IMG/VR virus record: IMGVR_UViG_3300045988_068495
Coordinates: 1-42,680 of that record
DNA length: 42,680 nt
Origin: a virus
Strand: one strand, 5' to 3'
The first letter of the stretch is position 1; each line of letters starts with the position of its first letter. This document shows, piece by piece, positions 342 to 40,271 of the stretch. A program made the position numbers and the translations under genes. The notes under the pieces are model-generated. The model ran no database searches, was not told the origin of the DNA, and saw only the letters and a program-made list of their open reading frames with translations.

Positions 342-852
342 ATACACGATCATCATAGCCCAGGTGTGCGCGGCGCTGCTGGCGCTGATAGTCATGGTAC
401 TGCTTGCCCTTGACAAAGGGGGCAACAAGGCCGATGCGGACGGTGTGCCGCCCGAGGTTGATACGCACGGCCTGTGCGTAGTGGAAGTGGCAGAGCCTGA
501 GTACGAGATGTACTTTACCGAGGCCGACGTGATAGCCCTTGCGCAGATGCTATACGGCGAAGCAAGGGGCTGCACCCTGTTAAATCAGCAGCAGTGCGTA
601 TGGTGTGTGCTTAATCGCGTTGACGATGCGCGTTTTCCTGACAGCATAATCGGCGTTGTGTCGCAACCGGGGCAGTTTTACGGCTATTCGGCTGATTTTC
701 CCGTGTGGGATAACCTCTATGCCGTTGCGCTGGATGTTGTTCAGCGCTGGGCGGCGGAGAAACAGGGCGCAGAAGTTGTGCGTGAACTGGGCAGCGAATA
801 CCTGTGGTTTACGGGCGATTCAGTCGAAAATCATTTTAGGGCGGTGTATTGA
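334..852 (+). CDS. SleB-like cell wall hydrolase (Hydrolase_2 type) with an N-terminal transmembrane anchor
   Basis: Hydrophobic N-terminus IIAQVCAALLALIVMVLLAL. Motifs ALAQMLYGEARGC, CVLNRVDDARFPDSIIGVVSQPGQFYGY. ATGA overlap with the upstream ORF. Confidence 0.7.
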   Translation: MNKYTIIIAQVCAALLALIVMVLLALDKGGNKADADGVPPEVDTHGLCVVEVAEPEYEMYFTEADVIALAQMLYGEARGCTLLNQQQCVWCVLNRVDDARFPDSIIGVVSQPGQFYGYSADFPVWDNLYAVALDVVQRWAAEKQGAEVVRELGSEYLWFTGDSVENHFRAVY

Positions 853-1523
853 TGAAAATTCTTGAATTATTCGCCGGGACGCGGAGTATCGGCAAGGCAT
901 TTGAGGCTAAAGGTCATGAAGTGTTTTCAATTGAATGGAGCAAGGACTTTGAGAATATTGACCTTTATGCCGACATCATGACAGTCAAGGCCGAAGACAT
1001 CCTTCAGAAGTTCGGCAGACCTGATGTGATATGGGCAAGCCCTGATTGCAGCACATTCAGCATAGCAGCGATAAGTCATCACCGCAGAAAGAACCCTGAC
1101 ACCGGAAACCTTGACCCGGTAAGCGAATATGCGAAGTTCTGCGATGCGGTTGATCAGCATGTTTTACGCCTGATTTCAGCATTATCCCCAAAGTATTGGT
1201 TTATCGAAAATCCAAGGGGCGGTATGCGGAAGATGACATGGATGCAGGGACTTCCACGGTACACGGTTACATATTGCCAATATGAGCTTGACAAGCCTGC
1301 TGAACAGCGCAGGATGAAGCCTACGGATATCTGGACAAACCATCCTGACCCCCAGTTTAAGCCGATGTGCAAAAATGGTGACCCTTGTCATGCGGCAGCG
1401 CCGAGAGGTTCACGCACTGGAACACAGGGCTTGAACGGCAGCAGAGAAAGAAGCGTTATCCCTGCTGCGCTGTGTCAGCATATCGTTGAAATATGTGAAG
1501 AATTATGCGTCGACCAACAGTAA
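849..1523 (+). CDS. DNA (cytosine-5) methyltransferase-like, short form
   Basis: ELFAGTRS (SAM motif I-like), ASPDCSTFS (motif IV Pro-Cys), IENPRG (motif VI ENV-like). ATGA overlap with the upstream gene. Confidence 0.6.
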   Translation: MMKILELFAGTRSIGKAFEAKGHEVFSIEWSKDFENIDLYADIMTVKAEDILQKFGRPDVIWASPDCSTFSIAAISHHRRKNPDTGNLDPVSEYAKFCDAVDQHVLRLISALSPKYWFIENPRGGMRKMTWMQGLPRYTVTYCQYELDKPAEQRRMKPTDIWTNHPDPQFKPMCKNGDPCHAAAPRGSRTGTQGLNGSRERSVIPAALCQHIVEICEELCVDQQ

Positions 1524-1649
1524 ACAAGCCCTGCCCGTATTCCTCAAGCTGCTTTAGCTGCCCTTGCAGTGATTGCAGAATATCCGGGATGGATGCGGTG
1601 CAGATTAACCAGATTGATTTAGGATTTTTGGAAGAAAGGAAAGCAGAAA

Positions 1650-1886
1650 ATGATAATCACACGTAAAAAGTTTGAAGAAGCAATGGCGAAGGTTCGCGCC
1701 GAGGAACAGGCAAAGTATGAAAAGTGGGCAAATGAGTGCGATGAAAAACGCTTGAATGATGAGCGCATAAACGAGCTTGATAAGCGCATGAGCAGAGCTT
1801 TCAATGATATCGCCCGTAGGCTTACCGAACTCGAAAAGCAAACGACTGCGCCACATGCGGTCGCGGCATACCCGTACGGTTATTGA
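1650..1886 (+). CDS. Hypothetical coiled-coil protein
   Basis: ATG is preceded by AAAGGAAAG. The product is charged and helical. Confidence 0.5.
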   Translation: MIITRKKFEEAMAKVRAEEQAKYEKWANECDEKRLNDERINELDKRMSRAFNDIARRLTELEKQTTAPHAVAAYPYGY

Positions 1887-1893
1887 GGTGGCT

Positions 1894-2298
1894 ATGACAG
1901 AGAAAGATTTGACAATCCAAGACCTTCGGCGTGAAAACGAATGGCTGAAAAAACGCATAGAACTTGCGGAACGGAAACTTGCGGAAACTGAAAAAAACAA
2001 CGACAACGACCGCTTGACCGAGCACATCAGAGAACTGCTGAAAGCCGACAAGGACGGGCGCGTAGTGGTGAAGCCGTGCAAGGTGGGTGACACGTTATTC
2101 AGAGTGTTCGCCGGAGAAATCTTAGAGCACAAAGTCGTAAACATGAGATACCTCGCAATACAGGGACGGTGGGACATTGATACAATCCCGTTCTGCTCAT
2201 ACGTGGAAAGTTCCATAGGGAAAACGATTTTTTTGACCCGAGAAAAAGCGAAAGAGGCGTTGGAGGCAAGGAAAGATGGCGACAAAACTGATCTGTGA
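1894..2298 (+). CDS. Hypothetical protein
   Basis: ATG 1894 lies 6 nt after GAGGTGG, inside track ORF 1804..2298. The N-terminus is coiled-coil. Confidence 0.5.
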   Translation: MTEKDLTIQDLRRENEWLKKRIELAERKLAETEKNNDNDRLTEHIRELLKADKDGRVVVKPCKVGDTLFRVFAGEILEHKVVNMRYLAIQGRWDIDTIPFCSYVESSIGKTIFLTREKAKEALEARKDGDKTDL

Positions 2299-2455
2299 CC
2301 GCTGCGGCGCGGAGATAAACCCAAAGGGCTCCGTGATCTATGCAGGAATGCGGCGGCATAACATGAGCAGAAACGAGACCGACTATGATCTGTGCGTTTC
2401 GTGCGTGCACGAGCTGCGTGCGTGGCTTAGTGGAAAAGAGAACGACCATGGCTGA
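2276..2455 (+). CDS. Small zinc-ribbon protein (59 aa, below the ORF-track cutoff)
   Basis: MATKLICDRCGAEI...DLCVSCVHEL carries two CxxC pairs. Its stop TGA 2453-2455 overlaps the next start (ATGGCTGA). Confidence 0.45.
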   Translation: MATKLICDRCGAEINPKGSVIYAGMRRHNMSRNETDYDLCVSCVHELRAWLSGKENDHG

Positions 2456-2786
2456 ATACATAGAACGTGAAGCGCTGTTACATGACATCGAACAATCGGT
2501 GGTATACACGGTAAGAGAAAAAATAACGAGCGCAGAAATGCGAGGCGCTCGCAAAGTTATCGAGCGCATTAAGTGTGCGCCTGCTGTCGAGCCTATTTAT
2601 ATTCACGAACCGACAAAAAGCGAGTTTAAGCGCATGGCGGCGCAGATGGGCTATGTCCTGGTAGTGCGGTGTAAGGACTGCAAGTATTACAAACCGGATG
2701 AATACGAATGCGGATGTGATTATGGCTTACCGTGTGTAAAGGCTGACGATTTTTGCAGCTATGGAGAAAGGCGGACTGACAAATGA
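2448..2786 (+). CDS. Hypothetical phage protein with a Cys-rich C-terminus
   Basis: Internal ATG 2448 of track ORF 2385..2786, coupled to the upstream stop. C-terminus reads CKDCKYY..CGCDYGLPC..FCSYGERR. Confidence 0.5.
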   Translation: MAEYIEREALLHDIEQSVVYTVREKITSAEMRGARKVIERIKCAPAVEPIYIHEPTKSEFKRMAAQMGYVLVVRCKDCKYYKPDEYECGCDYGLPCVKADDFCSYGERRTDK

Positions 2787-3187
2787 AAGAAATGGTTTAC
2801 AAGTCTGAGCGCTGTGATGCTGAATTGCTGGCTTGCGATACGTATAAGGGATTTGATTACTACGTTGTAAGCCGCGGAATGCATCCGTGCGCGTATGTCG
2901 ATATCAAGCATTACGATAAGGCGATTAACGCTAAAACGATTAACTGCCATGGTGGAATAACGTATTCCGAAAGCACGCTGGATGCGGCAGATCACGACGG
3001 TTGGTTCATTGGATGGGGTTATGCACAAGTTTTAGACTATTTCGGATGTTATCGCGATGCCCCGGACACGCGAACGTATCGGCGCTGGACAACCGCCGAG
3101 ATGGTTGCTGAATGCAAGCGCGTTATAGACCAAATCTGCGAAAGGCGGTCAGACGCCGACGTTGCGCCGGTGGTGCGCTGCCAATGA
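2783..3187 (+). CDS. Hypothetical phage protein
   Basis: ATGA overlap with the upstream gene. Contains CHGGITYSE and WFIGWGY motifs. Confidence 0.5.
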   Translation: MKEMVYKSERCDAELLACDTYKGFDYYVVSRGMHPCAYVDIKHYDKAINAKTINCHGGITYSESTLDAADHDGWFIGWGYAQVLDYFGCYRDAPDTRTYRRWTTAEMVAECKRVIDQICERRSDADVAPVVRCQ

Positions 3188-3781: not shown

Positions 3782-3929
3782 AAAAACCAAGCGCTGCATT
3801 TATAGCGATAGCTGCTTTAAATGTCCGCTAAGCGATTGCAGGATGAACACACCGGCGAAGTTGAATTGCCTGCCGCTGGACTTTGAACCGTATACAAAGC
3901 GATTTAAGGTGGTGACTAAGCATGGGTAG
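3768..3929 (+). CDS. Small Cys-rich protein (53 aa, below the ORF-track cutoff)
   Basis: MRTREKTKRCIYSDSCFKCPLSDC... Both ends overlap neighbouring genes; the 3' overlap is ATGGGTAG. Confidence 0.35.
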   Translation: MRTREKTKRCIYSDSCFKCPLSDCRMNTPAKLNCLPLDFEPYTKRFKVVTKHG

Positions 3930-4248
3930 AAAACAATCGGGGTTTGCAAAGCGTATACGGCACGAATTCGACATAGAGATGCAGCTTTATGTGAATAACC
4001 GTATGCAGATGGCCGAAGACGCGGCGTTTATGGCCGCTAATGATATTTTGGGCTTGGGCGCTGGACGCGCTAAGGCGTTCGGCGAAAGATTCGTTATGTA
4101 TGTAAACGAAATTGCCGAACTGTTCGTAGAAGACAGCGTGGGCGATAAAAGCCTGGAATATTCAAAAACCGTCCTTGACCGGCGCATCCGTGAAATAGTG
4201 GGCGAGGATAACTTCTCGCCATTCGATGAAAGGTATGGTAGGCGATAA
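3922..4248 (+). CDS. Hypothetical phage protein
   Basis: Track ORF, with a TAATG overlap into the next ORF. Confidence 0.5.
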   Translation: MGRKQSGFAKRIRHEFDIEMQLYVNNRMQMAEDAAFMAANDILGLGAGRAKAFGERFVMYVNEIAELFVEDSVGDKSLEYSKTVLDRRIREIVGEDNFSPFDERYGRR

Positions 4249-4409
4249 TGGCTAAAAACGTAGGCTGGGAAGCCAAAAGCAACCACGACGGCAGCTACAC
4301 GGTTACCGTTAACGGCAAACAATATTATTGCGCAGATACGCATGAATTTCTGCACTTTTTAGAAGATATCGGCGAAAGGTGGGAGGATAGTGAAATTCGA
4401 AAAAGATGA
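4248..4409 (+). CDS. Small hypothetical protein (53 aa)
   Basis: ATG 4248 overlaps the upstream TAA. The ORF overlaps the next GTG start at 4390. Confidence 0.35.
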   Translation: MAKNVGWEAKSNHDGSYTVTVNGKQYYCADTHEFLHFLEDIGERWEDSEIRKR

Positions 4410-4743
4410 ACGCCGCGAGTTTTCTACCGGCGCAGTGAGGGACAATGCCGCGGGGAAAGGCCGCTATGATTTGCTGCCCTGGGGAGCGATACACGCCCTT
4501 GCACAGCACTGTGAACGCGGCGCTATCCACTATGGGGAAAGGAACGTCGACAAAGGCATACCCCAGCACAGCTTGATAGACAGCGGCATACGGCATCTTA
4601 GCCTGTACATACAGGGCGACGCGGAAGCGCATCACCTTGTAGCGGCACTGTGGAATATAGCGTGGGCTGTGGAGCAGGAAATAAAACGGCCTGAAATGGT
4701 TGATTTGCCCGAACGCAATGAAAAATCAGGAAAGGCGTGGTGA
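4390..4743 (+). CDS. dATP/dGTP diphosphohydrolase N-terminal-domain-like protein (DUF5664 type)
   Basis: GKGRYDLLPWGAIHALAQHCERGAIHYGERNVDKGIP..IRHL..GD..HHLVAALWNIAW matches the remembered family pattern. GTG start lies after GGTGGGAGG. Confidence 0.55.
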   Translation: MKFEKDERREFSTGAVRDNAAGKGRYDLLPWGAIHALAQHCERGAIHYGERNVDKGIPQHSLIDSGIRHLSLYIQGDAEAHHLVAALWNIAWAVEQEIKRPEMVDLPERNEKSGKAW

Positions 4744-5048: not shown

Positions 5049-5253
5049 CTGCAAGGGCTGCACAGTGCGCCGCGTAGGCTGCCACGCCAATTGCAGCAGC
5101 TATCAGGCGTATTGTGCGGAGAATGATAAGCGTAAGGCGGCGGCGCGGAATGAATACCCGGCAAGGGAGCTGCTGGTGACCGGCTACATAAAACGCGCAA
5201 GGGCGGTAAAGACATTTACAACTAAAAAATGTTGGAGGTATCGCGGAACATGA
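5038..5253 (+). CDS. Hypothetical Cys-rich protein
   Basis: ATG 5038 lies inside track ORF 4996..5253. Product begins MRNDCKGCTVRRVGCHANCSSYQAYC. Confidence 0.45.
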   Translation: MRNDCKGCTVRRVGCHANCSSYQAYCAENDKRKAAARNEYPARELLVTGYIKRARAVKTFTTKKCWRYRGT

Positions 5254-5474
5254 TAATCCAAAGTCAGTGCGAAATGATGTTAAACCACATGCGCGAACAC
5301 GGCAGCATAACAAGCCGCGAGGCCATGTATGACTACGGCATAGGCAGGGCATCTGGGCGCGTGTTTGATCTTCGCAAGCGCGGCTATGACGTTGAAACAA
5401 CGATGGAGACCGGACTTAACCGTTACGGCATCCCGACGCGATACGCGAGGTACACGCTGCATGAGGGGCGCTGA
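5250..5474 (+). CDS. Winged-helix / HTH DNA-binding protein
   Basis: ATG 5250 lies 10 nt after GGAGGT, with an ATGA overlap. Pattern HGSITSREAMYDYGIGRASGRVFDLRKRGYDV...RYARYTL. Confidence 0.5.
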   Translation: MIIQSQCEMMLNHMREHGSITSREAMYDYGIGRASGRVFDLRKRGYDVETTMETGLNRYGIPTRYARYTLHEGR

Positions 5475-5688
5475 CGGATATTATGACAGCCGGGCAAAAT
5501 GCCCGTTTTGGTCAAAAGGCTCGGCACGTGAGAACAAGATATTTTGTGAAGGCCCATGCGGTGACGCGAGATTGCAGCTATGGTTTAAAGGCGACGAACA
5601 AAAACGCCGGGTATATGTGTCAAAATACTGCTGCACTCAATATGCCCAATGCCCGGTCTACAAGATCACATTAGCGGAAAAATACTAA
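5461..5688 (+). CDS. Hypothetical Cys-rich protein upstream of terS
   Basis: ATG 5461 lies 9 nt after GAGGT. Contains CPFW..FCEGPCGD..YCCTQYAQCPVY. Confidence 0.45.
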   Translation: MRGADGYYDSRAKCPFWSKGSARENKIFCEGPCGDARLQLWFKGDEQKRRVYVSKYCCTQYAQCPVYKITLAEKY

Positions 5689-5689
5689 A

Positions 5690-5722
5690 GGGTAGCGCAT
5701 TAAGCGTTACCCTTGTTTTTTT
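5690..5722 (+). terminator. Rho-independent terminator closing the early/middle operon
   Basis: GGGTAGCGC-ATTAA-GCGTTACCC forms a 9-bp stem with one G:U, followed by TTGTTTTTTT. Confidence 0.8.
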
Positions 5723-5731
5723 ATGTGCAGC

Positions 5732-5783
5732 AAAAAAGTGCGCAAGGTGGGGCTGATTAATGCAGCGCCACCTACATTATTAT
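5732..5783 (+). promoter_or_regulatory. Conserved late box, copy 1 (A6-GTGCGCAAGGTGGGGCT-N23-TATTAT)
   Basis: Shares an 18-nt identity with 10806..10823 and has the same 23-nt spacing to a -10-like hexamer as copies 2 and 3. Confidence 0.4.
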
Positions 5784-6269
5784 AAAAGCATGAGTAAATG
5801 GGATGATATCAAAACTGAATACATCACTACGGACATAGGAACAAGGCCGCTTGCCGAGAAACACAACGTTTCTTACAGCACCCTGCGTAAACGCGCAGAA
5901 CGTGAAAAATGGGCGCAGAAGCGGACGCAGTATAGCGCGGCCAAGGGCGCAGACCGTATCAAAGCACAGTTGGAGATTGACTATCAGGAATACAAAAGCC
6001 TGTTAGAGGCCGCCGGGCTGCTGTCAAGCAAGCTATGCAGCGCTGTAGCGCAGTTAACGGATGCGGATATTATCAAGGATAAACGCGGCCTGAAAAGCCT
6101 TACAGGGGCAATGAAAGACCTTGCAGAAATTCAGGGCGTTAAATCCGATGCTGACAAACGCGAGCAGGAAGCGCGAATTAAAAACCTTGAGCGCCAGGCG
6201 GCAGGGGAAGCACAGCCGGAGCCGGTGCGCGTTATCATTGCCGGTGCCGATGATTTCTGCTGTAAATAA
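5760..6269 (+). CDS. terS: Terminase small subunit
   Basis: Sits immediately upstream of terL. N-terminal HTH-like TRPLAEKHNVSYSTLRKRAEREKW, with a coiled-coil C-terminus. Alternative start ATG 5790. Confidence 0.7.
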   Translation: MQRHLHYYKSMSKWDDIKTEYITTDIGTRPLAEKHNVSYSTLRKRAEREKWAQKRTQYSAAKGADRIKAQLEIDYQEYKSLLEAAGLLSSKLCSAVAQLTDADIIKDKRGLKSLTGAMKDLAEIQGVKSDADKREQEARIKNLERQAAGEAQPEPVRVIIAGADDFCCK

Positions 6270-6271
6270 CC

Positions 6272-7903
6272 ATGCCTGAATACAAAATCGACTACCTAAG
6301 CCCTACACAACAGGAATTTTTAAAGGATAGGGCACATGTTGTGTTCTTTGGCGGCGCACGCGGCGGCGGCAAAAGCTTCGTCCTGCGTGCGTCGGCGGCG
6401 CTGTACTGCTTTAAGTTCGCGGGGATAACATGCATGATCGTGCGAAAAACGTACCCGGAGTTGCAGGAAAACCATATAGTGCCGCTGACACGCGATCTGC
6501 ATTGCTATGATGCTGATAAATCACAGCGCATGGCGAGCTATAACGATCAGAAGAAGGTCATTACATTCCCGAACGGCAGCAGAATATTGTTTAGGTACTG
6601 CGATACCGACAAGGATGCAGAACGCTTTCAGGGCACAGAAACGGATATTCTGTTTTTGGACGAAGGTACCCACCAAACCGAAGAACAGTTTAGGAAGCTC
6701 TCGGCCTGCGTGCGTGGCGCGAATGATTTCCCGCGGCGGATATATGTTACATGTAACCCCGGCGGCGTGGGTCACAGTTGGGTGAAACGGCTGGCGATAG
6801 ACCGCGCCTATACCGATGGGGAGAACCCGGAGGACTATTCATTTATTCCAAGCAAGGTCACGGACAACAAGCCGCTGATGGATGCAGACCCTGATTATAT
6901 CAAAAAGCTTGAAGCCCTGCCGCCTAAGCTGCGCAAGGCATGGCTTGAGGGCGAATGGGACATATTCGACGGCGCATTCTTTGAAGATTTCAGAACGCGC
7001 CCGGATGCGCAACTGTGCGCAAAGGCAGGGATAACGCCGGAAGAAGCTATAGCACAGCGCAGATTTACGCATGTTATACCGGCGTTTGACCTGAACGAAG
7101 GTGCTGCACGTGGCTGGACGATATACAGGTCATACGACTTCGGCTATAACAAACCATTCAGCTGCGCGTGGTGGGCTATCGACTATGACGGCGTACTGTA
7201 TCGCGTTTTGGAGCTATACGGCTGCACAGATACGCCAAACGAAGGTGTAAAGTGGACACCCGACGAGCAGTTTAAGCGTATCCGCGAGACGGAGCAGACG
7301 CACCCATGGCTTAAAGGGCGCAAGATACTTGGCGTTGCTGACCCGTCAATATGGGATGTGTCGCGCGGCGTGTCGGTCGCGGAGACCGCCGAAAAATACG
7401 GCATATACTTCGACCCCGGCGACAACAAGCGGCTTGCAGGCTGGATGCAATGCCATTATCGACTGCAATTTGACGATAACGGTTATCCGCGCATGTATGT
7501 ATTCGACAACTGCAAGGCGTTTATCCGTACTATACCGCTGCTGATGTACGACGAACATAAACCGGAAGATTTGGACACGTCGATGGAAGATCATTGCTTG
7601 ACAGGCGACACATTGGTACTAACCGGCAACGGTTACAAGCCAATTGAAAGCCTTGTTGATACATGCGGTACCGTGCTTTCACATGACGGGCAATATCACA
7701 GATACAACGATGTACGCCTTACAAGGGAAAATACCCATATATTAAAAATAACATTAGAAGACGGAACAACGGTTAAATGCACTGATGACCATAGGCTTAT
7801 GCTGGCAAATGGCGAATGGAAAACTGCAGGCGAGCTTGTGGCAGGTGAGGAGGTAATGACGATTGAATGTGCAGGTCATAAGCGACACGATACAGAAGTT
7901 TAA
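6272..7903 (+). CDS. terL: Terminase large subunit N-fragment (441-aa extein) fused to a 102-aa split-intein N half
   Basis: Walker A GGARGGGKS and Walker B ILFLDEGTH. At Cys 7595 the sequence switches to CLTGDTLVLTGNGYKPIESL ... KCTDDHRLMLANGEWKTAGEL, with stop TAA at 7901-7903. Confidence 0.85.
   Translation: MPEYKIDYLSPTQQEFLKDRAHVVFFGGARGGGKSFVLRASAALYCFKFAGITCMIVRKTYPELQENHIVPLTRDLHCYDADKSQRMASYNDQKKVITFPNGSRILFRYCDTDKDAERFQGTETDILFLDEGTHQTEEQFRKLSACVRGANDFPRRIYVTCNPGGVGHSWVKRLAIDRAYTDGENPEDYSFIPSKVTDNKPLMDADPDYIKKLEALPPKLRKAWLEGEWDIFDGAFFEDFRTRPDAQLCAKAGITPEEAIAQRRFTHVIPAFDLNEGAARGWTIYRSYDFGYNKPFSCAWWAIDYDGVLYRVLELYGCTDTPNEGVKWTPDEQFKRIRETEQTHPWLKGRKILGVADPSIWDVSRGVSVAETAEKYGIYFDPGDNKRLAGWMQCHYRLQFDDNGYPRMYVFDNCKAFIRTIPLLMYDEHKPEDLDTSMEDHCLTGDTLVLTGNGYKPIESLVDTCGTVLSHDGQYHRYNDVRLTRENTHILKITLEDGTTVKCTDDHRLMLANGEWKTAGELVAGEEVMTIECAGHKRHDTEV
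7595..7900 (+). other. Intein N-terminal half (IntN, 102 codons)
   Basis: Hint block A is CLTGDTLV and block B is TDDH (TxxH). A stop codon terminates it; no in-frame endonuclease domain follows. Confidence 0.75.
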
Positions 7904-8372
7904 TGGTTTTTCGTACTATCTTTGCGGCGCGTATTATCAGCGAAAAGGAAAGCGACTACATAGAACGGTATGGGAATACCACAACGGCGAAATCCCCAAA
8001 GGATATCATGTGCATCATATAGACGGTGACAGAGCGAATAACCAGATAAGCAATCTTGCTCTGCTTAAAGGACATGACCATTTGAGCGGACATATGTCAT
8101 CGCCTGAGCGAAAAGAACAATCGCGTGAATGCATAAAAGAGGCAGTAAAAGCTGCTGCACAGTGGCATGGAAGCGAACAGGGAAATAAGTGGCATTCTGA
8201 GCATATGCACGAATATTGGCGTAAAGCGCCTTTAAGGACATACATATGCGATAACTGCAAAAAGGAATATCAAAGTAAGGCGGTTCGATATATCGGCAAT
8301 CACTTTTGCTGTAACAACTGTAAAGCTGCGTTCCGGCGGAAGAGGCAAAAGAATGAAAATAAAGAAAATTGA
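7863..8372 (+). CDS. Free-standing HNH endonuclease (HNH_3-like) inserted between the intein halves
   Basis: It has its own frame. TTG 7863 lies 9 nt after GAGGAGG (7847-7853). Motifs HRTVWEYHNGEIPKGYHVHHIDGDRANNQISNLALL, with a C-terminal CDNC..CCNNC zinc motif. Confidence 0.8.
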   Translation: MNVQVISDTIQKFNGFSYYLCGAYYQRKGKRLHRTVWEYHNGEIPKGYHVHHIDGDRANNQISNLALLKGHDHLSGHMSSPERKEQSRECIKEAVKAAAQWHGSEQGNKWHSEHMHEYWRKAPLRTYICDNCKKEYQSKAVRYIGNHFCCNNCKAAFRRKRQKNENKEN

Positions 8373-8457
8373 GAGAGTAGGAAAAGCCGATGTTTACAAC
8401 ATGGAAGTCGAGGGCACACACAGTTTCGTGATACAGGGCGGCATTGTCAGTCACAAC
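8353..8457 (+). other. Intein C-terminal half (IntC, 35 codons)
   Basis: MKIKKIERVGKADVYNMEVEGTHSFVIQGGIVSHN covers blocks F and G and ends in HN. The next codon, TGC 8458-8460, is the +1 Cys. Confidence 0.75.
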
Positions 8458-8592
8458 TGCTCCGACGAATGGCGATATATGTGTATGACAAGACCGATAA
8501 GCCCGATAATACCTCAAAAACCGAAAGTCATATTGTCAGACCCACTGAACCAATACAAAAAGGATGGATACAAAGCAAATGGATATCACTAA
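8353..8592 (+). CDS. terL: Split-intein C half plus the TerL C-extein (44 aa)
   Basis: This is a third frame, with ATG 8353 after GGAAGAGG. The extein CSDEWRYMCMTRP resembles the D..RY end of the terminase nuclease domain. Confidence 0.7.
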   Translation: MKIKKIERVGKADVYNMEVEGTHSFVIQGGIVSHNCSDEWRYMCMTRPISPIIPQKPKVILSDPLNQYKKDGYKANGYH

Positions 8593-10495
8593 GGACACTA
8601 TACGCGCAGACGGCAGCAAAGCGCCTGAGCTTGGCAGCGTTGAAACTGCGGCGCAGATGCTTGGCATAAAACCCATTGGGGAACAGCAGATACAGGATTT
8701 GATGCAGACACTGAACAAATATCGTGCAGGGAAGAAGACGGTCGATAGCCGTATCATTGCGTCGGAAAACTGGTGGAAGCTGCGAAATGACGTCGAAGAA
8801 GACAAGGACGGTCACGCAAAGCCGGGGTTTAGAAGCAAAAGCGGCTGGCTGCATAACGTAATCACAAACAAACATGCCGACGCAATGGATGCATACCCCG
8901 AGCCTAACATACTACCACGAGAACAGGGGGATAAAGCAGAGGCGGCTATGCTGTCTAAAATAATCCCTGTTGTGCTGGAAAAGAACCAGTTTGAGACTAC
9001 CTATAGCAAAGTTATGTGGTCGAAGCTAAAGACCGGCACAGGCGTGTACAAGGTCATATGGGATAAGAACAAGATGAACGGCTTGGGCGATATCGATGTG
9101 CGCAAGTGCAACATCCTTAATCTGTTCTGGGAGCCGGGAGTCGAGGATATACAGCAGTCAAAGTATTTCTTTGAGGTCGATTTTCAGGACGAAACCGAAG
9201 TCCGCGCCATGTTCCCGGGCGAGCTGCCGGAGGGCAAGAACATACCGCATGATTTTATAACCAGCAAATACAGCTACGATGACCATGTAGACACTACGGA
9301 CAAAGTACCCGTTATCAGCGCGTACTATCACAAAAACGGCGTGCTGCACTACATCCTGTTTGTCCCCGGCACTGTGCTTTACGCGACGGAAAATGACCCT
9401 GACCGTGCAATGGCCGGCTGGTATGACCACAGCAAATACCCGTATGTGTTTGACACGCTGTTTCCCATTGAAGGCAGCCCATGCGGATACGGCTATGTAG
9501 ACCTGTGCAAAGCGCCGCAGACGGAAATTGACCTGATGAAAACGGCGTATGTGGAAAATGCAATGGTCGGCGCAAAACCCAGGTACTTTAAGAAAGCCAA
9601 CTGCGGCGTGAATGTTGAGCAGTTTACGAACCTGAATGAAACCATCATAAACGTCGAAGGCAGCTTAAACGACGATAACCTAAAGCCTGTTACGCACGAT
9701 AACCTTGACGGCAACTATATAAGCATGCTGCAGCTTAGCATCAACGAATTGCGCGAAACCAGCGGCAACACAGAAACCGCAACAGGCACGACAAGCAGCG
9801 GAGTAACGGCTGCAAGCGCAATAGCGGCATTGCAGGAAGCCAGCGGCAAAGGCAGCAGAGACAGCACCAAGGCAAGCTACAGGGCATACAGCGAATTAAA
9901 CTATCTTGTCATAGAGCTGATAAGGCAGTTTTACGATGCGCCGCGTCAGTTCCGCATTCTGGGCGACGGCGGCGAGGAATTGTTCTTAAGCTATTCCAAC
10001 GAGCACATAAAGCCGCAGACACAGATGTTTGCCGGATACGATATCGGGCAGCGTGTGCCGGAGTTTGATATCAATGTCGTTCCGCAGAAGCGCACGGCAT
10101 ACACCAAGATGTCAAATAATGAATTGGCTTTGCAGTTTTATAACCTCGGCTTTTTCAATCCGCAGCAGACAGACCAGGCGCTTGCATGCCTTACGATGAT
10201 GGATTTTGACAGCATCGACAACGTTCGAAAGACCATCAAGCAGAACGGCACACTGTTTGACCGATTTAATACGGTACTGCAAGTCGCGGCACTGCTTGCG
10301 GCCAAATGCGGTGATGCGCAGTCGCTTGCACAGATACAGGCTATAGCACAGCAGGCTAACGTACAGATCAGCACACCGCAGGCGAATATACAGATTGCAG
10401 AAGACCCTGCCAAGCGCGAACATGCGCAGGTGTCTAACGCCCGGGCAAAGACGCGCGAGGCGGCAATGCCCGATGGAGGATATGCAACGACATGA
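8564..10495 (+). CDS. Portal protein
   Basis: 643 aa immediately after terL. Contains ENWWKLRN and a conserved central region with an acidic, Gln-rich tail. Position and size are typical for a portal. Confidence 0.8.
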   Translation: MDTKQMDITKDTIRADGSKAPELGSVETAAQMLGIKPIGEQQIQDLMQTLNKYRAGKKTVDSRIIASENWWKLRNDVEEDKDGHAKPGFRSKSGWLHNVITNKHADAMDAYPEPNILPREQGDKAEAAMLSKIIPVVLEKNQFETTYSKVMWSKLKTGTGVYKVIWDKNKMNGLGDIDVRKCNILNLFWEPGVEDIQQSKYFFEVDFQDETEVRAMFPGELPEGKNIPHDFITSKYSYDDHVDTTDKVPVISAYYHKNGVLHYILFVPGTVLYATENDPDRAMAGWYDHSKYPYVFDTLFPIEGSPCGYGYVDLCKAPQTEIDLMKTAYVENAMVGAKPRYFKKANCGVNVEQFTNLNETIINVEGSLNDDNLKPVTHDNLDGNYISMLQLSINELRETSGNTETATGTTSSGVTAASAIAALQEASGKGSRDSTKASYRAYSELNYLVIELIRQFYDAPRQFRILGDGGEELFLSYSNEHIKPQTQMFAGYDIGQRVPEFDINVVPQKRTAYTKMSNNELALQFYNLGFFNPQQTDQALACLTMMDFDSIDNVRKTIKQNGTLFDRFNTVLQVAALLAAKCGDAQSLAQIQAIAQQANVQISTPQANIQIAEDPAKREHAQVSNARAKTREAAMPDGGYATT

Positions 10496-10836
10496 TAAAC
10501 GTATGCGTAAACAGCACCGGCAGCACATTCGAATTAAAAATCGAAGGGCATGCGCGGTCTGCGCCCAAAGGCGAGGATTTGATATGCGCGGCTGCGACAA
10601 TCCTTGTGCGCACGGCAGCGGCTATTTTGCAGGAAAGTTCCAAAGATATCACGGAAATTGATATATCCGACGGCAAAGCGCGAATAAAGCTGACTGAATA
10701 TGACCCTGTGGCGGTCATTGAAATGTCGGTAATAGTCAAGGGCTTTGTGTTGCTGATGCAGGAATACCCGGAATACATAAAAATTTTCACAGAAACTGAA
10801 AAAAATGCGCAAGGTGGGGCTGAAAGCAAAGCATAA
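10492..10836 (+). CDS. prp: Prp-like cysteine protease (ribosomal-processing protease / DUF464 family)
   Basis: IEGHARSAPKGEDLICAAATILVRTA matches the GHA...D.VCAA.S catalytic His/Cys pattern. ATGA overlap with the portal gene. Confidence 0.65.
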   Translation: MINVCVNSTGSTFELKIEGHARSAPKGEDLICAAATILVRTAAAILQESSKDITEIDISDGKARIKLTEYDPVAVIEMSVIVKGFVLLMQEYPEYIKIFTETEKNAQGGAESKA

Positions 10837-10850
10837 GTAAATGCTATGCT
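10799..10850 (+). promoter_or_regulatory. Conserved late box, copy 2 (A7-TGCGCAAGGTGGGGCT-N23-TATGCT)
   Basis: See copy 1. The hexamer is followed by GAAAAC, compared with GAAATC in copy 3. Confidence 0.4.
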
Positions 10851-10944
10851 GAAAACGTGGGTTGCATGAGACAGCAAGTTCACCTCCTTTAAGATGCCGC
10901 CCCGGCAGACGGCGGCTGTAATAGTCTGCTTTCTCCTTTCTTGT

Positions 10945-10976
10945 GGGCGGAGTCCCCCCTTCTCCGCCCCTTTTGT
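10945..10976 (+). terminator. Rho-independent terminator in the prp-scaffold intergenic region
   Basis: GGGCGGAG-(9 nt)-CTCCGCCC followed by CTTTTGT. Confidence 0.65.
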
Positions 10977-10978
10977 AT

Positions 10979-11045
10979 ATCGCCTTAGTTTAACGGTAAA
11001 ACGCTCGGAGAGATAGAGATGCAGGTTCGAGCCCTGCAGGCGGTA
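10979..11045 (+). ncRNA. tRNA-like element: acceptor, D and T arms are intact but the anticodon arm is aberrant. Not a canonical tRNA.
   Basis: Acceptor ATCGCCT/AGGCGGT (7 bp, one G:U). D arm GTTT-AACGGTA-AAAC. T arm GCAGG-TTCGAGC-CCTGC. Only 18 nt lie between the D and T arms and no 5-bp anticodon stem forms. Confidence 0.3.
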
Positions 11046-11090
11046 CGACGGACTTGTCCACCTACGGGCAAATAAATAGGAGGCATGTAA

Positions 11091-12104
11091 ATGCACAACA
11101 AATTCAGTTGGCTGCAGCTATTCGCGGACGGTACCGGCGATGGCGGTGCAGCCACTTCGGGCGAAACATCTGCCGCCGCCGGGCAGAACACGGGCGTTAA
11201 TGTGTCTGTTGCCGCCGAACAGACAGCACCGAAAACCACGGCTGACAGGCTCGCAGAGCTTGGAGTGCCTAAGGAAAAACTCGGACGGGCGAAATATGGC
11301 AAGGCTGTTAATCAGCCTAAAGCCGATGCGCAGGCCGCCGCTGCGCCAAAGGAAGCCATAGAGGCAGCAGAGACTAAAGATACAGCAAAGCGGCTTACAT
11401 GGGATGAAATCATGGCAGACCCCGACTATAACCGGGAGATGCAGAAAGTAGTCTCGTCGGCAAAGACAAAGTACAAGGCGGACGCCGAGGGGCTTGAGAA
11501 GCTTGCTCCGGCGCTGCAGCTGCTATCCAAAAAGTACGGCGTAGACTCGGGAGATTATGACGCAATCGCAAAAGCGGTCGCGGATGATGACGAGTATTAC
11601 GAAGACCGTGCGATGGAATTGGGTGTATCGACCGAGGTAGCAAAGCAGCTCGAGCGCTCCGAGGCTGTGGCAAGAGCGGCAGAAGCGCAAAAGCAGCAGT
11701 TTATCAACGAGCAGAAGCTTATGGAGCATCTGGGCAAGATGAACGCGCAGGCCGTTGAGCTTCAGAAAAAATACCCCAACTTTGATTTGCGGAAAGAGCT
11801 GGACAACCCTACATTCCGACGCTTGACCGCGCCTGACCTGATGTTTTCCCTCGAGGATGCATATGAACTTGTGCATCGAGATGAAATAAAGGAAAGCATA
11901 CGGCAGGCAGCGCTGAAAGCATCGGTGCAGCAGGTGTCTAATGCTGTGCAGTCGAATAGATCGCGCCCGAGTGAGGGCGGCGTTCCCAAGTCCTCTAACG
12001 CTTCCATTCAGACGTTTGATTACAGAAACGCCACACGGGAGCAGAGAGAGGCGTTGAAAGCCCGGATCAGATCGGGTGAAAAGATATATCCCGGGCAGTT
12101 TTAA
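11091..12104 (+). CDS. Scaffolding protein with an N-terminal Prp-type cleavage motif
   Basis: Sits between prp and the capsid gene. The product is acidic, Ala/Lys-rich and coiled-coil. N-terminus MHNKFSWLQLFADG. RBS is TAGGAGG. Confidence 0.7.
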   Translation: MHNKFSWLQLFADGTGDGGAATSGETSAAAGQNTGVNVSVAAEQTAPKTTADRLAELGVPKEKLGRAKYGKAVNQPKADAQAAAAPKEAIEAAETKDTAKRLTWDEIMADPDYNREMQKVVSSAKTKYKADAEGLEKLAPALQLLSKKYGVDSGDYDAIAKAVADDDEYYEDRAMELGVSTEVAKQLERSEAVARAAEAQKQQFINEQKLMEHLGKMNAQAVELQKKYPNFDLRKELDNPTFRRLTAPDLMFSLEDAYELVHRDEIKESIRQAALKASVQQVSNAVQSNRSRPSEGGVPKSSNASIQTFDYRNATREQREALKARIRSGEKIYPGQF

Positions 12105-17992: not shown

Positions 17993-20900
17993 ATGGCTTC
18001 AAATAGCATAAAAAAATACATTGCGAAACTGAAAGCTAATGAAAACTGGGTTGGCGACAATGCAAGCAGCGAAAAAAGCAAGAGCACCAATTCAGATTGG
18101 CGCAGTGAGTATATTGCAAGAATAAAAAGCGGTGCGGCAGCAAAAACCTATGATGATGAGCAGAAGTCAAAAGCACTTTTGCGCAACAATCCCGGATATG
18201 TATATAGCAAAGTATACGGCGATGGAACGAAAGGCAAAGCTGCGGCTTCGAAAATTGAAACCGGCAAGGGCAACGGCTATATCAGCGTGTGGGATGGCGA
18301 TGCAGTTAAGCGCAACAATCCCGGATACACATATCTGCAACAGGCCGGAGGCGGTGAAAAGCTCACCAAAGGCAGCGACGCGATATCGGCAGGCGATATT
18401 GAGTGGTATAAAAAGATACTCAGAGGCATTGACGTAGGCCTAACCGATTTCGGCAAAAGCTTGGTTTCCACTGCTGATGTTGTTACCAGCCTCGGCGACG
18501 AGGATGGAGGCCCTTTGCAAGAGCTTTGGTATATGTTTGGCGGCGACCGCATAGCAGAGGCTGCAGGGGATAATGCATTAGGAATTAAAGGCTTGAATTT
18601 TAAAGATAACCCTATCAAAGCCTTTAATAAACTCGGTGAGAAAGAAATAGAATACCGCCAAAAGCGCGACGCTGCGTATGCAGATAACCCCCTTTATAAG
18701 TACAGCGCGGCGACTTCTGAAGCGGCGGCAATGATGGCGTCAACTCTTATGGGCGGCGGTCTTGCAACTGCTGTCGACACTGCCGCGCTTGCTAATGCTG
18801 CGCGGATTGGGCAGGCTACCTCAAAACTCAGCCAGACCGGAGCTATAGCTCAGAACGCGATAAAGCAGTTTGCGACGCGCCCGGATGCGCAAGTTATATT
18901 TGGCTCGTCATTTGGTTCAAGCTATGACGAGGCTAAACAAGACGGCGCGGATGACTTGCAGGCGCTTGTTTATGCTGCGCTGAATGGCGCAGGAAATGCG
19001 GTTACTGAACTTGGCGGCGTCTCCGAACTTGGCGGCTTGCAGAAGTTGCCCGAATGGGTGAAAAAAGCTGTTAATAAGGGCGACAAAAGTCTGCTTCTCA
19101 ACTACGCTAAGAGCATCGGGGAAGAAGCAAGCGAGGAAATCATACAGGGCATTTTAGGCAGAGGACTAAAGAGTATATACTCTGACGTGCCGCTGTATGA
19201 CGCAAACGATGAAAACTCTATAATCAATCCAAAGGCGGCGCTTGAGGAAGCTACCGGCGCGGCGGTCGTTTCGACTTTGCTCGGTCTCCCTACGACCGGC
19301 ATAAATGCGGCATACAGAGCAAAGCAGCGCGGAGAAACCGGGCAGAGATTATACGGCAATTCTCAGCGAGAGTTAGTTGACGAAGGACTGGAAAGCGAAC
19401 GAGGCACTAAAAGCTATGAGCTTGCAAGAAAATACGATGAAAAGCTAAATAGCGGCAAACAGCTTAGCGGTAACGAGCTTTACAAGCTTGCACAAGCTAA
19501 CGAAAAAGCGCAGGCAAATGAGGGACCTGCTGTTCAGCCAGTGCCAGAAGCACAAACCAATGAGGAAAGCCCGTCGTTGCCGTATGCTGCACTGAACAGA
19601 GAACAGCAGTTATCCGGGCTAAGAAATTATGTTGAACAACGCTCGGAGATGTCTGCGCCTGTTAACACAAACGTTTCAAATAATGAAGCTGTAAGCGAAA
19701 GCATAAACAATGTTGCGGCAAAGATAGATGCAACGCCTGAGTTCGTGAGCAGAGTATACAATTTAAATCCCGTCGCGTCTCCCAAGGCGTTTGAAATGGC
19801 GTTTGATGCTGTGTATCAGATGGGGCAGCGGGGCGTGAACAAAGAGACGCTTACCAAAGTGCCCGTGCTGAACCGCGCACAGGCGGAGATAGCCTATAAC
19901 ATGGGTGCATCTACAACTCAGGCGGCGGTTGACGATGCGGCTGTGCAAGGTGATAATGTAAGCACACAGGTAAACAACCAGATAAACACACAGGAGGTAA
20001 ACGAGAATGGAATACGTCTACGCGACAGCAGCCAACGGCTTAACGGTCAGAATACCGAAGGACAAATACCCTCAGTGGAAAGAGGCACAGTCGAAGCTTA
20101 CGCCGGAACAGATAGCGGCAGACAAAGCGGTTATAGCGCAGCTCAAGGCAAAGCTGGGCAAAAAGTAGTCTATAACGGCGTAGAGCAGGAAAACGTCTAC
20201 TACTCCGGCGAGGACACCGAGAGCATGAAAAAAGGCCGTGAGCTTGCAAGAAGCTACGGCTACAACGTTCAATATTTTGAGGGCGGCAATATCAAGGACA
20301 GCGGCGGCGAGTTCAGAGGCATGGTCGATACCGAGAGCAAAACCGTTATGGTGCGTTCAGACCATCCCGACATATCCGCAGAGCAGATAATGCGCCACGA
20401 GATGGGGCACGCGGCAATTGCACAGGGCGATATAAGCCTTGACGAGCTGCGCAGCGCTATGCTTTCAGACCTCTCGGAGAAAGAGCTTAACAGCGCCGTC
20501 GAGGTCTACAGGCACGCATACGGCGACACGATAAGCGAGGCCGAAGCGTTTGAGGAAATGTGCTGCGACGCGCTGGGCAGGATAAACATCTTTGCCGGAA
20601 CGGAGCACGACAGCGCAGGCTACGGCAAGATGCAGGAAAGTTTCCGTAAACACACCGCCGAGGCCGCGAACAAAGGCAGAGCACCGCCGAAGAGCGGAGT
20701 GAAGTATTCGCTTGAACCGTATTCTAATCAGCAGATTGAAAATTGGAAGAGCAGCAAGCGAATAAATGTTTATGAAAATTCCGCACAATTAGACTTGTTC
20801 GTAAAGAGAGCTATAGAGGATAAGGGTTTTACCGGCAAAATGTTTTTTGGAGTTGTTGGCAATGATCTTGCAAATGCTATAGAAACTGCGACAGGCTATA

Positions 20901-32735: not shown

Positions 32736-33851
32736 TCAATCTTGCTTGGGTAAATTGTCGTAAAAATCGCGCATTGCGTTTTCTGCGTGGCCTATGTCCT
32801 GCGCAGACAAATGCGTGTAAATTTTACGCATTGTCGCGTAGTCTGACCAGCCGCCTATTTGCATTGCAGCCTGTTCGCTCATACTAACATGGTAGGCTAA
32901 TGAAGCGAAAGAATGACGCAAGCCGTGAACTCCAAGCTTCGGCAAACCATTAGCAGCGCAAATATTATTGACCCAATCATACACTGTGGAAATGTAGCAT
33001 GTTACGACCTTACCGTGCTTACTTTTAACAGCCGTCAAAGCCTCATAAAGCTCCGGTATCATAATAGGTATTGTTCGGGTCGATGTGGCGTTTTTGTTTG
33101 ACGGCTTTTCAACAAGTGTCCAATTTTCTCCCGGGACTACTGCGCCGGAAACTTTTATAGTGCGCTTATCCAAATCAACATTTGACCAATCAAGCGCGGC
33201 GATCTCTGAGCGCCTGAGCGAATGCAAGCCGAGTAGTGCGGCTATCTCGACAGGCGTTCCCTTGACGGCTGCGATAAAGACATGTATCTGCTCCGGGGTA
33301 AGAAAAACGGGGTCTTTAGGCACAATTTGCGGCAGGGTAAGTCTGGGCAACTCCACACCGGCGGATTTAATAGCCGGTGACACAAGCCCCCATGCGTTCT
33401 TAAGCGTCTTAGGGGCACATACAAGCGCTTCTGCGTTAATCACCGCTTGCCAGTCCTTTATATCAGACAGCGGCTTTGCCATTACGGCCTTAAAGCGGTT
33501 TTTCTTCACAGAGCCATAACCGGCAAGGGTTGACGGCGACAGAACGTTCCGGCGATTATCAATATAATTATCTATTGCTTCGGCAAGTGTCAAATCCGTT
33601 TTCTTTTGGGTCTTAACAAACCCGGCTCTTATAGCAATCGCCTTGGCCTTGGCTTCGGCTTCGGTGTCCTCAATGACGGTCACACCCTCGCGCCGGAGGT
33701 CAACATACCACTTCTGCCCACGCTTACGCGGCGTGGGTATTTTTATCTCGTCTTTCTTCTTGCGCTCGCGGACAAGGCGCTCACCGCAGTAGCCGCAGAA
33801 CGTAAAATGCAGCTCATCGGGCAATTCGGCTTTGCAATTTCGGCACTTCAT
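32736..33851 (-). CDS. int: Tyrosine integrase with an N-terminal zinc ribbon
   Basis: CRNCKAE..FCGYCGE at the N-terminus. C-terminal catalytic pattern HGLRHSFASLAY ... GGWSDYATMRKIYTHL. Confidence 0.9.
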   Translation of the reverse strand: MKCRNCKAELPDELHFTFCGYCGERLVRERKKKDEIKIPTPRKRGQKWYVDLRREGVTVIEDTEAEAKAKAIAIRAGFVKTQKKTDLTLAEAIDNYIDNRRNVLSPSTLAGYGSVKKNRFKAVMAKPLSDIKDWQAVINAEALVCAPKTLKNAWGLVSPAIKSAGVELPRLTLPQIVPKDPVFLTPEQIHVFIAAVKGTPVEIAALLGLHSLRRSEIAALDWSNVDLDKRTIKVSGAVVPGENWTLVEKPSNKNATSTRTIPIMIPELYEALTAVKSKHGKVVTCYISTVYDWVNNICAANGLPKLGVHGLRHSFASLAYHVSMSEQAAMQIGGWSDYATMRKIYTHLSAQDIGHAENAMRDFYDNLPKQD

Positions 33852-39992: not shown

Positions 39993-40260
39993 CATCATGC
40001 AGAGCCGCCGGGAATGCTACATCACCGGCGACACACAGGGTCTAAACCGGCACCATGTATACGGCGGAGGACGCAGGCAAGCCGCCGACAAATGGGGCTG
40101 CTGGGTGTGGCTGCGCTGGGACTGGCACACCGGCGCAGAATACAGCGTACACCGAAACCGCGATTTTGATTTGCGCTTAAAACGTGAGTGCCAGGAACGA
40201 TTTGAAAAACTATACGGACACGAAAAGTTCATGGAAGTGTTCGGCAAATCATGGATTTGA
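39982..40260 (+). CDS. Conserved hypothetical phage protein (Cys/His-containing)
   Basis: ATG 39982 overlaps the upstream stop. Pattern RECYITGDTQGLNRHHVYGGGRRQAADKWGCWVWL. Confidence 0.45.
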   Translation: MADSIMQSRRECYITGDTQGLNRHHVYGGGRRQAADKWGCWVWLRWDWHTGAEYSVHRNRDFDLRLKRECQERFEKLYGHEKFMEVFGKSWI

Positions 40261-40271
40261 AAGGAGAAACA

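Follow-up and report, generated by a model that had tools for sequence, protein, structure and literature searches.

We have analyzed a 42,680-nucleotide (nt) stretch of viral DNA, IMG/VR record IMGVR_UViG_3300045988_068495 (hereafter the window, at its full length), which is the genome of a temperate gut phage, focusing on terL, the gene for the large terminase subunit TerL. Three open reading frames (ORFs) in three different frames span the terL locus. They are predicted to encode, in this order, most of TerL fused to the N-terminal half of a split intein (IntN), a free-standing homing endonuclease of the HNH_3 type, and the C-terminal intein half (IntC) fused to the remainder of TerL. The features are as follows, lengths being given in amino acids (aa) or nt.

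6272–7594, plus strand: TerL N-extein, residues 1–441, with the ATPase domain and most of the nuclease domain, ending ..DLDTSMEDH (Pfam Terminase_6N, E 9e-13; Terminase_3, E 4.5e-8).
7595–7903, plus strand: IntN, the N-terminal split-intein half, 102 aa, with Cys1, block A CLTGDTLVLT and block B TDDH; the interval includes the stop codon TAA 7901–7903.
7847–7853, plus strand: Shine-Dalgarno sequence GAGGAGG of the HNH gene, read from the sequence inside the IntN codons for G-E-E-V, 9 nt ahead of TTG 7863.
7863–8372, plus strand: free-standing HNH_3 homing-endonuclease gene, 169 aa, TTG start (Pfam HNH_3; PHROG phrog_15471, HNH endonuclease, E 1.4e-34).
8340–8345, plus strand: Shine-Dalgarno-like AAGAGG, read from the sequence inside the 3' end of the HNH gene, 7 nt ahead of ATG 8353.
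8353–8457, plus strand: IntC, the C-terminal split-intein half, 35 aa, MKIKKIERVGKADVYNMEVEGTHSFVIQGGIVSHN, with blocks F and G, the penultimate His and the terminal Asn (Pfam Intein_splicing, positions 122–155).
8458–8592, plus strand: TerL C-extein, 44 aa from Cys+1, CSDEWRYMCM..KKDGYKANGYH, and stop codon; matches intein-less TerL C termini.
7595–8457, plus strand: the whole mobile cassette IntN-HNH-IntC, 863 nt, a clean insertion relative to the intein-less loci L012 and L008.

All coordinates in a preliminary description of this locus were reproduced from the ORF list and the raw sequence, and its division of terL into ORFs 6272–7903, 7863–8372 and 8353–8592 is correct to the base. The first ORF (plus strand) encodes 543 aa, in which TerL residues 1–441, for which 7,981 homologs were retrieved, are followed by the 102 residues of IntN. 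As had been described, this Hint N-module begins at TGC 7595–7597, which encodes Cys1 directly after the N-extein, and runs for exactly 102 codons to TAA 7901–7903. IntN is recognized with an E-value of 2e-45 by a hidden Markov model (HMM) built from its own family. The second ORF had rightly been taken for an HNH_3-type nuclease gene opening at TTG 7863, since its product matches Pfam HNH_3 with an E-value of 8.9e-18 and 64.1 bits (curated cut-off 24.8); its HNH core is followed by a C-terminal Cys-rich (CxxC..CxxC) module. In this frame, TAA TGA stands just before TTG 7863. The gene shares 41 nt with IntN and 20 nt with IntC, and the stop codon of IntN takes its T from the third position of HNH codon F13 and its AA from the start of N14. 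In loci that, like the window, keep the 41-nt overlap, a GGAGG motif occupies the corresponding position. The third ORF, opening at ATG 8353 as earlier noted, encodes 79 aa, of which 35 lead up to GIVSHN and the following 44 begin with the Cys at position +1 (CSDEWRYMCM..) and end at stop codon 8590–8592. The C-extein holds the conserved D-E-x-R-Y motif and overlaps the start of the portal gene by 29 nt. No single frame is open from Cys1 to the terminal Asn, the layout of a contiguous bifunctional intein with an in-frame HNH domain, because there is a stop at 7901 and three frames are used. No internal promoter or terminator was found within the operon. Group I or II introns carrying a homing endonuclease gene (HEG) occur in terL, for instance in Pectobacterium phage CB7 and Vibrio phage ICP1. 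Such an intron was considered for the window and rejected, since there is no Rfam match at E ≤ 1 in 7300–8800 and the flanks encode intein blocks instead.

Scoring of both halves against intein profiles, a check that the preliminary description had proposed, places them on the same profile at complementary positions, IntN matching positions 44–96 and IntC positions 122–155 of the 155 in Pfam Intein_splicing (E 1e-5 and 3e-4, respectively). When joined, the two halves (137 aa) align end to end with solved inteins in phmmer searches, including the halophilic DnaE intein 7qil (E 6.9e-10), Spl DnaX 7cfv, gp41-1 6qaz and Npu DnaE, with an identity to DnaE- and gp41-1-type split inteins of only 20–28%. 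An AlphaFold2 model of the fused intein, made with a 23-row alignment of whole proteins, has a predicted local distance difference test (pLDDT) score of 83.6 and a predicted template modeling score of 0.71, with low confidence only at the split-site tail and the extein stubs; prediction from the single sequence was useless (pLDDT 43). All of the top 50 Foldseek hits of this model in the PDB are inteins or HINT domains, with a probability of 1.0. An alignment of 39 diverse loci showed no variation at Cys1, at the His of block B or at the terminal Asn, and at least 90% conservation of the Thr of block B, of the penultimate His and of Cys+1. Cys1 is present in 75 of 75 loci and HN/C (the slash marks the splice junction or insertion site throughout) in 70 of these 75. 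The stand-alone C-terminal ORFs have HN/C in 120 of 120 cases and an IntC of exactly 35 aa in 108 of 120. The net charge of IntN is –7 (family mean –7) and that of the first 12 residues of IntC is +4 (family mean +3.3). This acidic IntN and basic IntC N terminus are the same pattern as in natural split inteins. The sequence and structural features by which a class-1 intein is recognized are present in the window element: Cys1, T-x-x-H, HN with Cys+1, a HINT fold and a precise insertion site.

A likeness between the two halves was seen as well. At the protein level, the IntN segment encoded at 7739–7774, NTHILKITLEDG (ADVYAVELEDGT in relatives), resembles the IntC segment encoded at 8386–8421, ADVYNMEVEGTH, and a MAFFT alignment of mixed whole N- and C-type ORFs placed IntC ADVYNMEVED onto IntN ADVYAVELED; that alignment was discarded. 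The pseudo-two-fold symmetry within the HINT fold is the probable reason for this likeness.

Intein-less homologs define the insertion site. The preliminary description had suggested that the residues encoded at 8458–8589 resemble the missing C terminus of the TerL nuclease, and had proposed an alignment with intein-less TerL proteins, which was run and bears out the ..MEDH/.. junction. The intein-less homolog P0002, 85% identical in TerL, reads ..DLDTSLEDH/IADEWRYMCMARPVKPIIPEKP..KKDGYKANGYH across it, and MT835607, also intein-less, reads ..DLDTTMEDH/VADEWRYFCMSRPIKP.., that is, ..MEDH/VADEWRYFCM. Since these homologs continue through the junction, 8458–8589 encodes the true TerL C terminus. 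The intein-less terL allele of L012 reads ..GAAGATCAT/ATTGCCGACGAATGG.. around the site, and P0002, L001, L008 and L012 share the reading ..EDH/xADEWRY... At the DNA level, blastn finds window 5499–7594 and 8462–11000 collinear with L012 1876–3955 and 3960–6514 at 76% identity; this collinearity on both sides indicates a clean insertion of 863 nt at 7595–8457. The predicted spliced TerL has 485 aa, the same length as P0002. Among the best 120 TerL clusters, 22 stop 95–105 aa after Cys1, 91 lack the intein and three contain a mini-intein in one continuous frame; P0006, P0016 and P0081 carry contiguous TerL inteins of the same allele. No record was found in exact-sequence look-ups of the window N-terminal ORF and of P0122, and PDB sequence searches with the spliced TerL and with the HNH protein returned no usable match. 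As a side observation, 14 intein-less TerL clusters among the best 120 have a native Cys at position +1 (..EDH/CPDEVRY..), namely P0026, P0037, P0038, P0044, P0053, P0057, P0059, P0068, P0080, P0092, P0102, P0106, P0108 and P0114. Either these sites were pre-adapted for intein insertion, or an intein was once present in them and has been lost precisely.

The cassette is polymorphic, with empty alleles in relatives whose TerL is 83–85% identical, and it is under selection. When the window was compared with eight relatives, IntN, HNH and IntC all had few nonsynonymous differences (pN 0.08–0.35) relative to synonymous ones (pS 0.46–0.96, near saturation), with similar values for the extein; for HNH alone, pN is 0.2–0.35 and pS 0.8–0.96. 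Low pN against near-saturated pS indicates purifying selection on IntN, HNH and IntC. A closer comparison is offered by L093, an independent Logan assembly of another sample (ERR14038730) that is 97.4% identical over window 5187–11372. The divergence of the flanks is 3.6% (6.1% in the small terminase subunit TerS, 4.0% in the N-extein, 3.0% in the C-extein and 2.6% in the portal). Between 7572 and 8465 there is one difference, at 7905, where 30.7 would be expected from the flanks (Poisson P 1.4e-12), and only 1 of the 863 cassette positions (7595–8457) differs. At its two ends, this low-divergence tract stops no more than 24 nt and 9 nt, respectively, from the intein boundaries. The near-identical tract points to a recent transfer of the cassette as a unit.

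The fractured arrangement recurs widely. L093 reproduces the split layout, its sole indel relative to the window lying at 5228, outside genes, and diverged relatives from other samples (TerL 57–80% identical) keep the order TerL-N+IntN, HNH_3, small IntC ORF, portal. These comparisons bear on the indel errors that the preliminary description had wished to see excluded, and they reveal none. The same fractured terL is present in a cultured phage, Lactobacillus phage CL2 (NC_028835; locus L151, 1670–2774). There, IntN lies within an annotated 482-aa "terminase large subunit" (CDS 506–1954), and the next gene, annotated "HNH endonuclease" (1967–2590), begins 13 nt after the IntN stop. The ORF for IntC and the TerL C terminus (2490/2580–2774, ..VYNMEVESHHNFAVDGGFIVHN/CMDATRY..) is absent from the annotation of the GenBank record. 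The presence of a fractured terL in a cultured phage argues that the arrangement is functional. A literature search on CL2 returned nothing on its terL.

Together, these findings make it very probable that terL of this phage is a genuine fractured gene, in which a split class-1 intein surrounds a free-standing HNH_3 endonuclease gene and TerL would be made by trans-splicing. Each in-silico check that was run supports the preliminary description, which had proposed split-intein halves around an HNH gene. In the mechanism that we propose, the cassette interrupts the TerL nuclease domain, with His441 on one side and the conserved x-D-E-W-R-Y motif on the other, and the class-1 intein would have been broken at the canonical endonuclease-insertion loop, the break being filled by the HNH_3 homing-endonuclease gene. 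That gene would provide the stop codon of the upstream half (within F13-N14) and, through its 3' end, the Shine-Dalgarno sequence and ATG of the downstream half. One late transcript would yield three proteins, TerL(1–441)-IntN(102), HNH and IntC(35)-TerL(44). IntN (–7) and IntC (+4 over its N-terminal 12 residues) would then associate into one HINT fold, and trans-splicing through Cys1, Cys+1 and Asn35 would produce a 485-aa TerL with the bond ..MEDH-CSDEWRY.., so that packaging would depend on protein trans-splicing. The HNH endonuclease, in turn, is expected to cut the intein-less terL alleles of co-resident relatives, the repair of which would copy in the whole cassette (homing). We infer trans-splicing from the conserved catalytic residues, the purifying selection and the viability of cultured CL2 with the same layout.

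Several points weigh against this reading. Each intein half alone scores under the Pfam gathering score, and the template modeling (TM) scores of the AlphaFold2 model to solved inteins are only 0.42–0.54, which means that its geometry is approximate. The start codon of the HNH gene is TTG, which is weak, whereas most relatives have ATG, a consideration for its expression level. The low-divergence tract over the cassette could in principle be the product of ordinary phage mosaic recombination; indeed, window ~9400–11372, which covers the 3' end of the portal gene, Prp and the next gene, has zero differences to L093 over ~2 kb. The latter tract, which adjoins regions of 2.6–6% divergence, is a recombination mosaic between both phage lineages, independent of the intein cassette. 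Finally, the splicing chemistry and the HNH target are deduced, from comparative evidence that is strong.

A rival possibility is that no splicing takes place, either because the intein halves simply hold the TerL pieces in a non-covalent complex or because the window is a defective prophage. Splicing is predicted here from sequence, and a gene fractured by an HEG without splicing is known, Aeh1 nrdA, according to a citation in PMC2677866. However, all residues of the splicing chemistry are conserved across diverged loci, although mere association would not require them, and both halves are under purifying selection. The layout is also present in near-complete phage genomes of 42–45 kb and in the cultured lytic phage CL2. 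In addition, a 137-aa HINT domain left in the region of the nuclease active site would probably interfere. We therefore regard the absence of splicing as unlikely, and a fractured terL whose product is restored by trans-splicing as the better account.

The HNH protein itself could have, also or instead, another role. HNH proteins of the HK97 gp74 type are conserved components of the packaging module, typically encoded upstream of TerS near cos. The preliminary description had raised, as an alternative, that HNH could double as a terminase-associated protein of this type; HNH would then be an accessory nuclease of the terminase, needed for packaging. Its gene does lie within the packaging operon, and HNH proteins that assist terminases are mentioned in the discussion of PMC10055350. 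Intein-less relatives (L008, L009, L011 and L012; TerL 83–85% identical) nevertheless have no HNH gene between terL and portal. The portal gene directly follows terL in these relatives, except that L011 has between them a 67-aa ORF without Pfam match. Their lack of HNH makes a gp74-type packaging role unlikely. The window gene also belongs to HNH_3 and phrog_15471 and lies inside terL rather than upstream of TerS, and the TerL is of Terminase_3/6N type, labeled "PBSX family" by one source. Furthermore, HNH is almost always found between intein halves. With narrow self-built HMMs for IntN and IntC, 76 of ~123 loci with a near-full HNH (from IMG/VR and GTDB genomes) have IntN just upstream and IntC just downstream (58 of these 76 in a recognizable TerL), 20 more have IntN only and about a dozen have neither half. 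In 20 homologs, residues H51, H52, D54, N59, N60, N64, H73 and H77 are invariant. The embedding of HNH in inteins and its absence from intein-less relatives fit a homing endonuclease, as judged from these comparisons, and leave the gp74-type role with a slim chance. Both halves of the split intein are intact in L003, the closest diverged relative (TerL 80% identical), but its HNH protein (3831–4148) has only 105 aa, the C-terminal Cys-rich module being absent. The endonuclease seems to be decaying there within a stable split intein, a further point against a need for HNH in packaging.

Could the three ORFs be joined in translation? Programmed +1 ribosomal frameshifts in both overlaps would turn them into one bifunctional, cis-splicing intein, and the first overlap is strikingly constant, being exactly 41 nt in 17 diverged loci. 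This constancy is, however, explained by the IntN stop, which sits within the conserved HNH codons F13-N14 (in the HNH family F13 is invariant and N14 nearly so). The HNH/IntC overlap, in contrast, varies from 4 to 38 nt among loci, the IntC ORF starting within the HNH 3' end there too, and frame relations differ, with (+1,+1), (+1,+2) and (+2,+1) all represented. Variable overlap and differing frames fit independent initiation rather than programmed frameshifting. Neither junction has regulatory hairpins or significant RNA structure beyond chance (z 0.06 and 0.84), and in CL2 the gap after the IntN stop leaves no first overlap at all. Programmed frameshifting is thus very improbable, and three separately initiated proteins are favored. 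As for sequencing or assembly errors breaking a contiguous intein with an in-frame HNH into three apparent ORFs, it would take only two +1 changes, from frame 1 to 2 and then to 0, and contiguous inteins of the same allele exist (P0006, P0016 and P0081), but this is, on sequence grounds, effectively refuted by the collinearity of L093 without indel across 5229–11372, the recurrence of this arrangement of stops, starts and overlaps in at least 17 diverged loci (Illumina-based assemblies), the TAA TGA ahead of the HNH start and the Shine-Dalgarno sequence of each downstream ORF.

Fractured genes of this kind have been described by Dassa, London, Stoddard, Schueler-Furman and Pietrokovski in 2009 (PMC2677866), who found split inteins flanking free-standing endonuclease genes in Global Ocean Sampling metagenomes, and the layout proposed in the preliminary description matches theirs. 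The architecture is identical, namely N-extein with IntN, free-standing HEG, and IntC with C-extein; it is phage-borne in both cases, and in their model, as seems to be so in the window, the invading element supplies the upstream stop and the downstream start. Their IntN measures 88–105 aa and their IntC 33–54 aa, and the 3' end of the endonuclease gene overlaps the downstream half by 6–69 bp, compared with 20 nt in the window and 4–38 nt elsewhere in its family. The differences are that only GIY-YIG or Vsr-like endonucleases were found by Dassa et al., with HNH predicted to be capable of the same, and that their single terminase locus is gp17-like, from a myovirus, with an atypical split point and a 122-aa C-terminal part. 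The window, from a gut habitat, has instead an HNH_3-type HEG and a canonical split (102/35), in the gene for a Terminase_3/6N TerL that lies beside a P22-like portal gene. The cassette is a new member of the fractured-gene class rather than a new kind of system, its endonuclease being of HNH_3 type and its split site in TerL canonical.

The halves of the Npu DnaE intein measure 102 and 36 aa, and in cyanobacteria the two DnaE halves are encoded far apart, with no HEG between. The likeness of the 102/35 split to naturally split DnaE inteins, pointed out in the preliminary description, thus extends to the split position. More broadly, the window intein resembles the split inteins DnaE (Npu/Ssp), gp41-1, NrdJ-1 and IMPDH-1 in split position, half sizes, Cys1, HN and Cys+1 chemistry, charge distribution and fold, and differs from them by its low sequence identity. 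Naturally split inteins in phage large terminases are also familiar from AceL-TerL and related atypically split TerL inteins, which Thiel and colleagues reportedly described in 2014 and in which a very short IntN (~25 aa) is paired with a long IntC. They are mentioned in PMC7090010 and PMC10189870. Such inteins are used in protein engineering. The window intein is, in contrast, canonically split and unrelated in sequence, a match to VidaL being only marginal (E 0.89). Phage MIJ3 (PMC6892783) has an annotated split PolB intein with an HNH gene between the halves, likewise in an essential phage gene and likewise described from sequence only; there, the extein is PolB, the intein allele is unrelated and a single genome is concerned, whereas here the extein is TerL and loci number in the hundreds. 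Last, a preprint on actinobacteriophage inteins (bioRxiv 10.1101/2025.01.02.630785) describes EndoVII-like homing endonucleases out of frame within inteins, and HNH only in frame. Distant members of the window HNH family are similarly nested out of frame in contiguous TerL inteins, but the window intein is truly split, its frame being closed by a stop and IntC lying in a third frame. In the literature covered, which is incomplete, we found no description of a canonical TerL split intein with an HNH_3 gene.

The HNH family comprises at least 302 clusters at 90% identity and at least 483 IMG/VR loci, or 1,452 clusters at 50% identity (E ≤ 1e-10), and stand-alone IntC-TerL ORFs form at least 122 clusters. 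A fractured terL of this type proves to be common in gut phages. The family is large and mostly unannotated, and automatic annotation therefore gives a truncated or odd terL in many gut phages. If our reading is right, the packaging motor-nuclease would exist only after trans-splicing, and virion production would rely on the chemistry of a selfish element. Protein engineering could also gain from the family what is predicted to be a new natural split intein of canonical type (102/35 aa) that depends on Cys, and the related states of the family (free-standing, nested, split and re-fused) allow an experimental test of the origin of split inteins by HEG invasion.

Other members of the HNH family are arranged differently around terL. 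In Pseudomonas phage PAE1 (L153, 2265–2882) the gene is free-standing between an intact terL and portal, and in Salmonella phage Shemara (L150, 2501–3091) it lies between an intact terL and portal on the opposite strand; no intein halves were detected near either gene. This layout is possibly the ancestral free-standing state. In distant relatives, the intein frame is open from Cys1 to HN/C (310–370 aa) and the same HNH family is nested in a different frame, the in-frame product matching Hint and Intein_splicing but not HNH_3, which is matched in the alternate frame. Such loci include L030 (3667–4773) and L053 (3086–4066), as well as L033, L037, L040, L044, L047, L049, L050, L052–L055, L057, L059, L060, L062–L066, L075, L082, L088–L090 and L092. 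The cultured Clostridium phage phiCDHM19 (L152, terL 443–2842) and Tetrasphaera phage TJE1 (L154, terL 984–3170) also have a nested HNH. L010 has a contiguous TerL intein of the window's allele (5540–5700; P0016, 629 aa), the linker of which, when read in another frame (..GEEFQTRHVYGKGQNTFCCANHRAAWRRKIHAN*, the asterisk being a stop), holds a remnant of the C-terminal Cys-rich module of HNH. This remnant indicates that the contiguous form arose from a split ancestor by deletion of most of the HNH gene. Whether the HNH_3 lineage is a dedicated intein-invading homing endonuclease, so far undescribed as such, with a series of free-standing, nested, splitting and deleted forms across many bacterial phyla, is in our view evenly balanced. 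If true, this graded series would document in present-day phages, at several stages in cultured ones, how split inteins arise under the gene-breaking model, and packaging in the window's clade would have become reliant on protein trans-splicing.

The remainder of the window is consistent with a temperate phage. Three of its features frame the terL locus or bear on the lifestyle:

5760–6269, plus strand: small terminase (TerS-like) gene (PHROGs phrog_1206, E 6e-8), its position conserved in relatives.
8564–10495, plus strand: portal gene (Pfam P22_portal, E 3e-29), directly downstream of terL.
32736–33851, minus strand: integrase gene, which marks the genome as that of a temperate phage.

Other genes encode a Prp protease, a capsid protein, a CHAP lysin and SSB. 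A second free-standing homing-endonuclease-like gene (40692–41240, plus strand; NUMOD4, E 1e-12; HNH_3, E 8e-6; phrog_59, E 1e-39) directly follows the SSB gene (40251–40679). A 2,249-aa ORF (17993–24742, plus strand) has a PBECR3 (Barnase/EndoU/ColicinE5-like nuclease) domain at residues 954–1067, and its counterpart in L010 is 3,284 aa long. A 224-aa ORF resembling C5-cytosine methylases (849–1523, plus strand) aligns with no more than the first third of the Pfam profile, at its N-terminal end. We considered whether it might be a second split gene and rejected this, as only N-terminal motifs are present and the neighboring ORFs scanned have no methylase match. Along with a dATP/dGTP diphosphohydrolase N-domain protein (4390–4743, plus strand), this ORF hints at DNA modification. 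Finally, the closest bacterial relatives of the HNH protein are in metagenome-assembled genomes of Oscillospiraceae, Eubacteriales, Butyricicoccus, Lachnospiraceae and Acutalibacteraceae, and the nearest phage records are from human feces, which suggests that the host is likely a gut member of the Clostridia.

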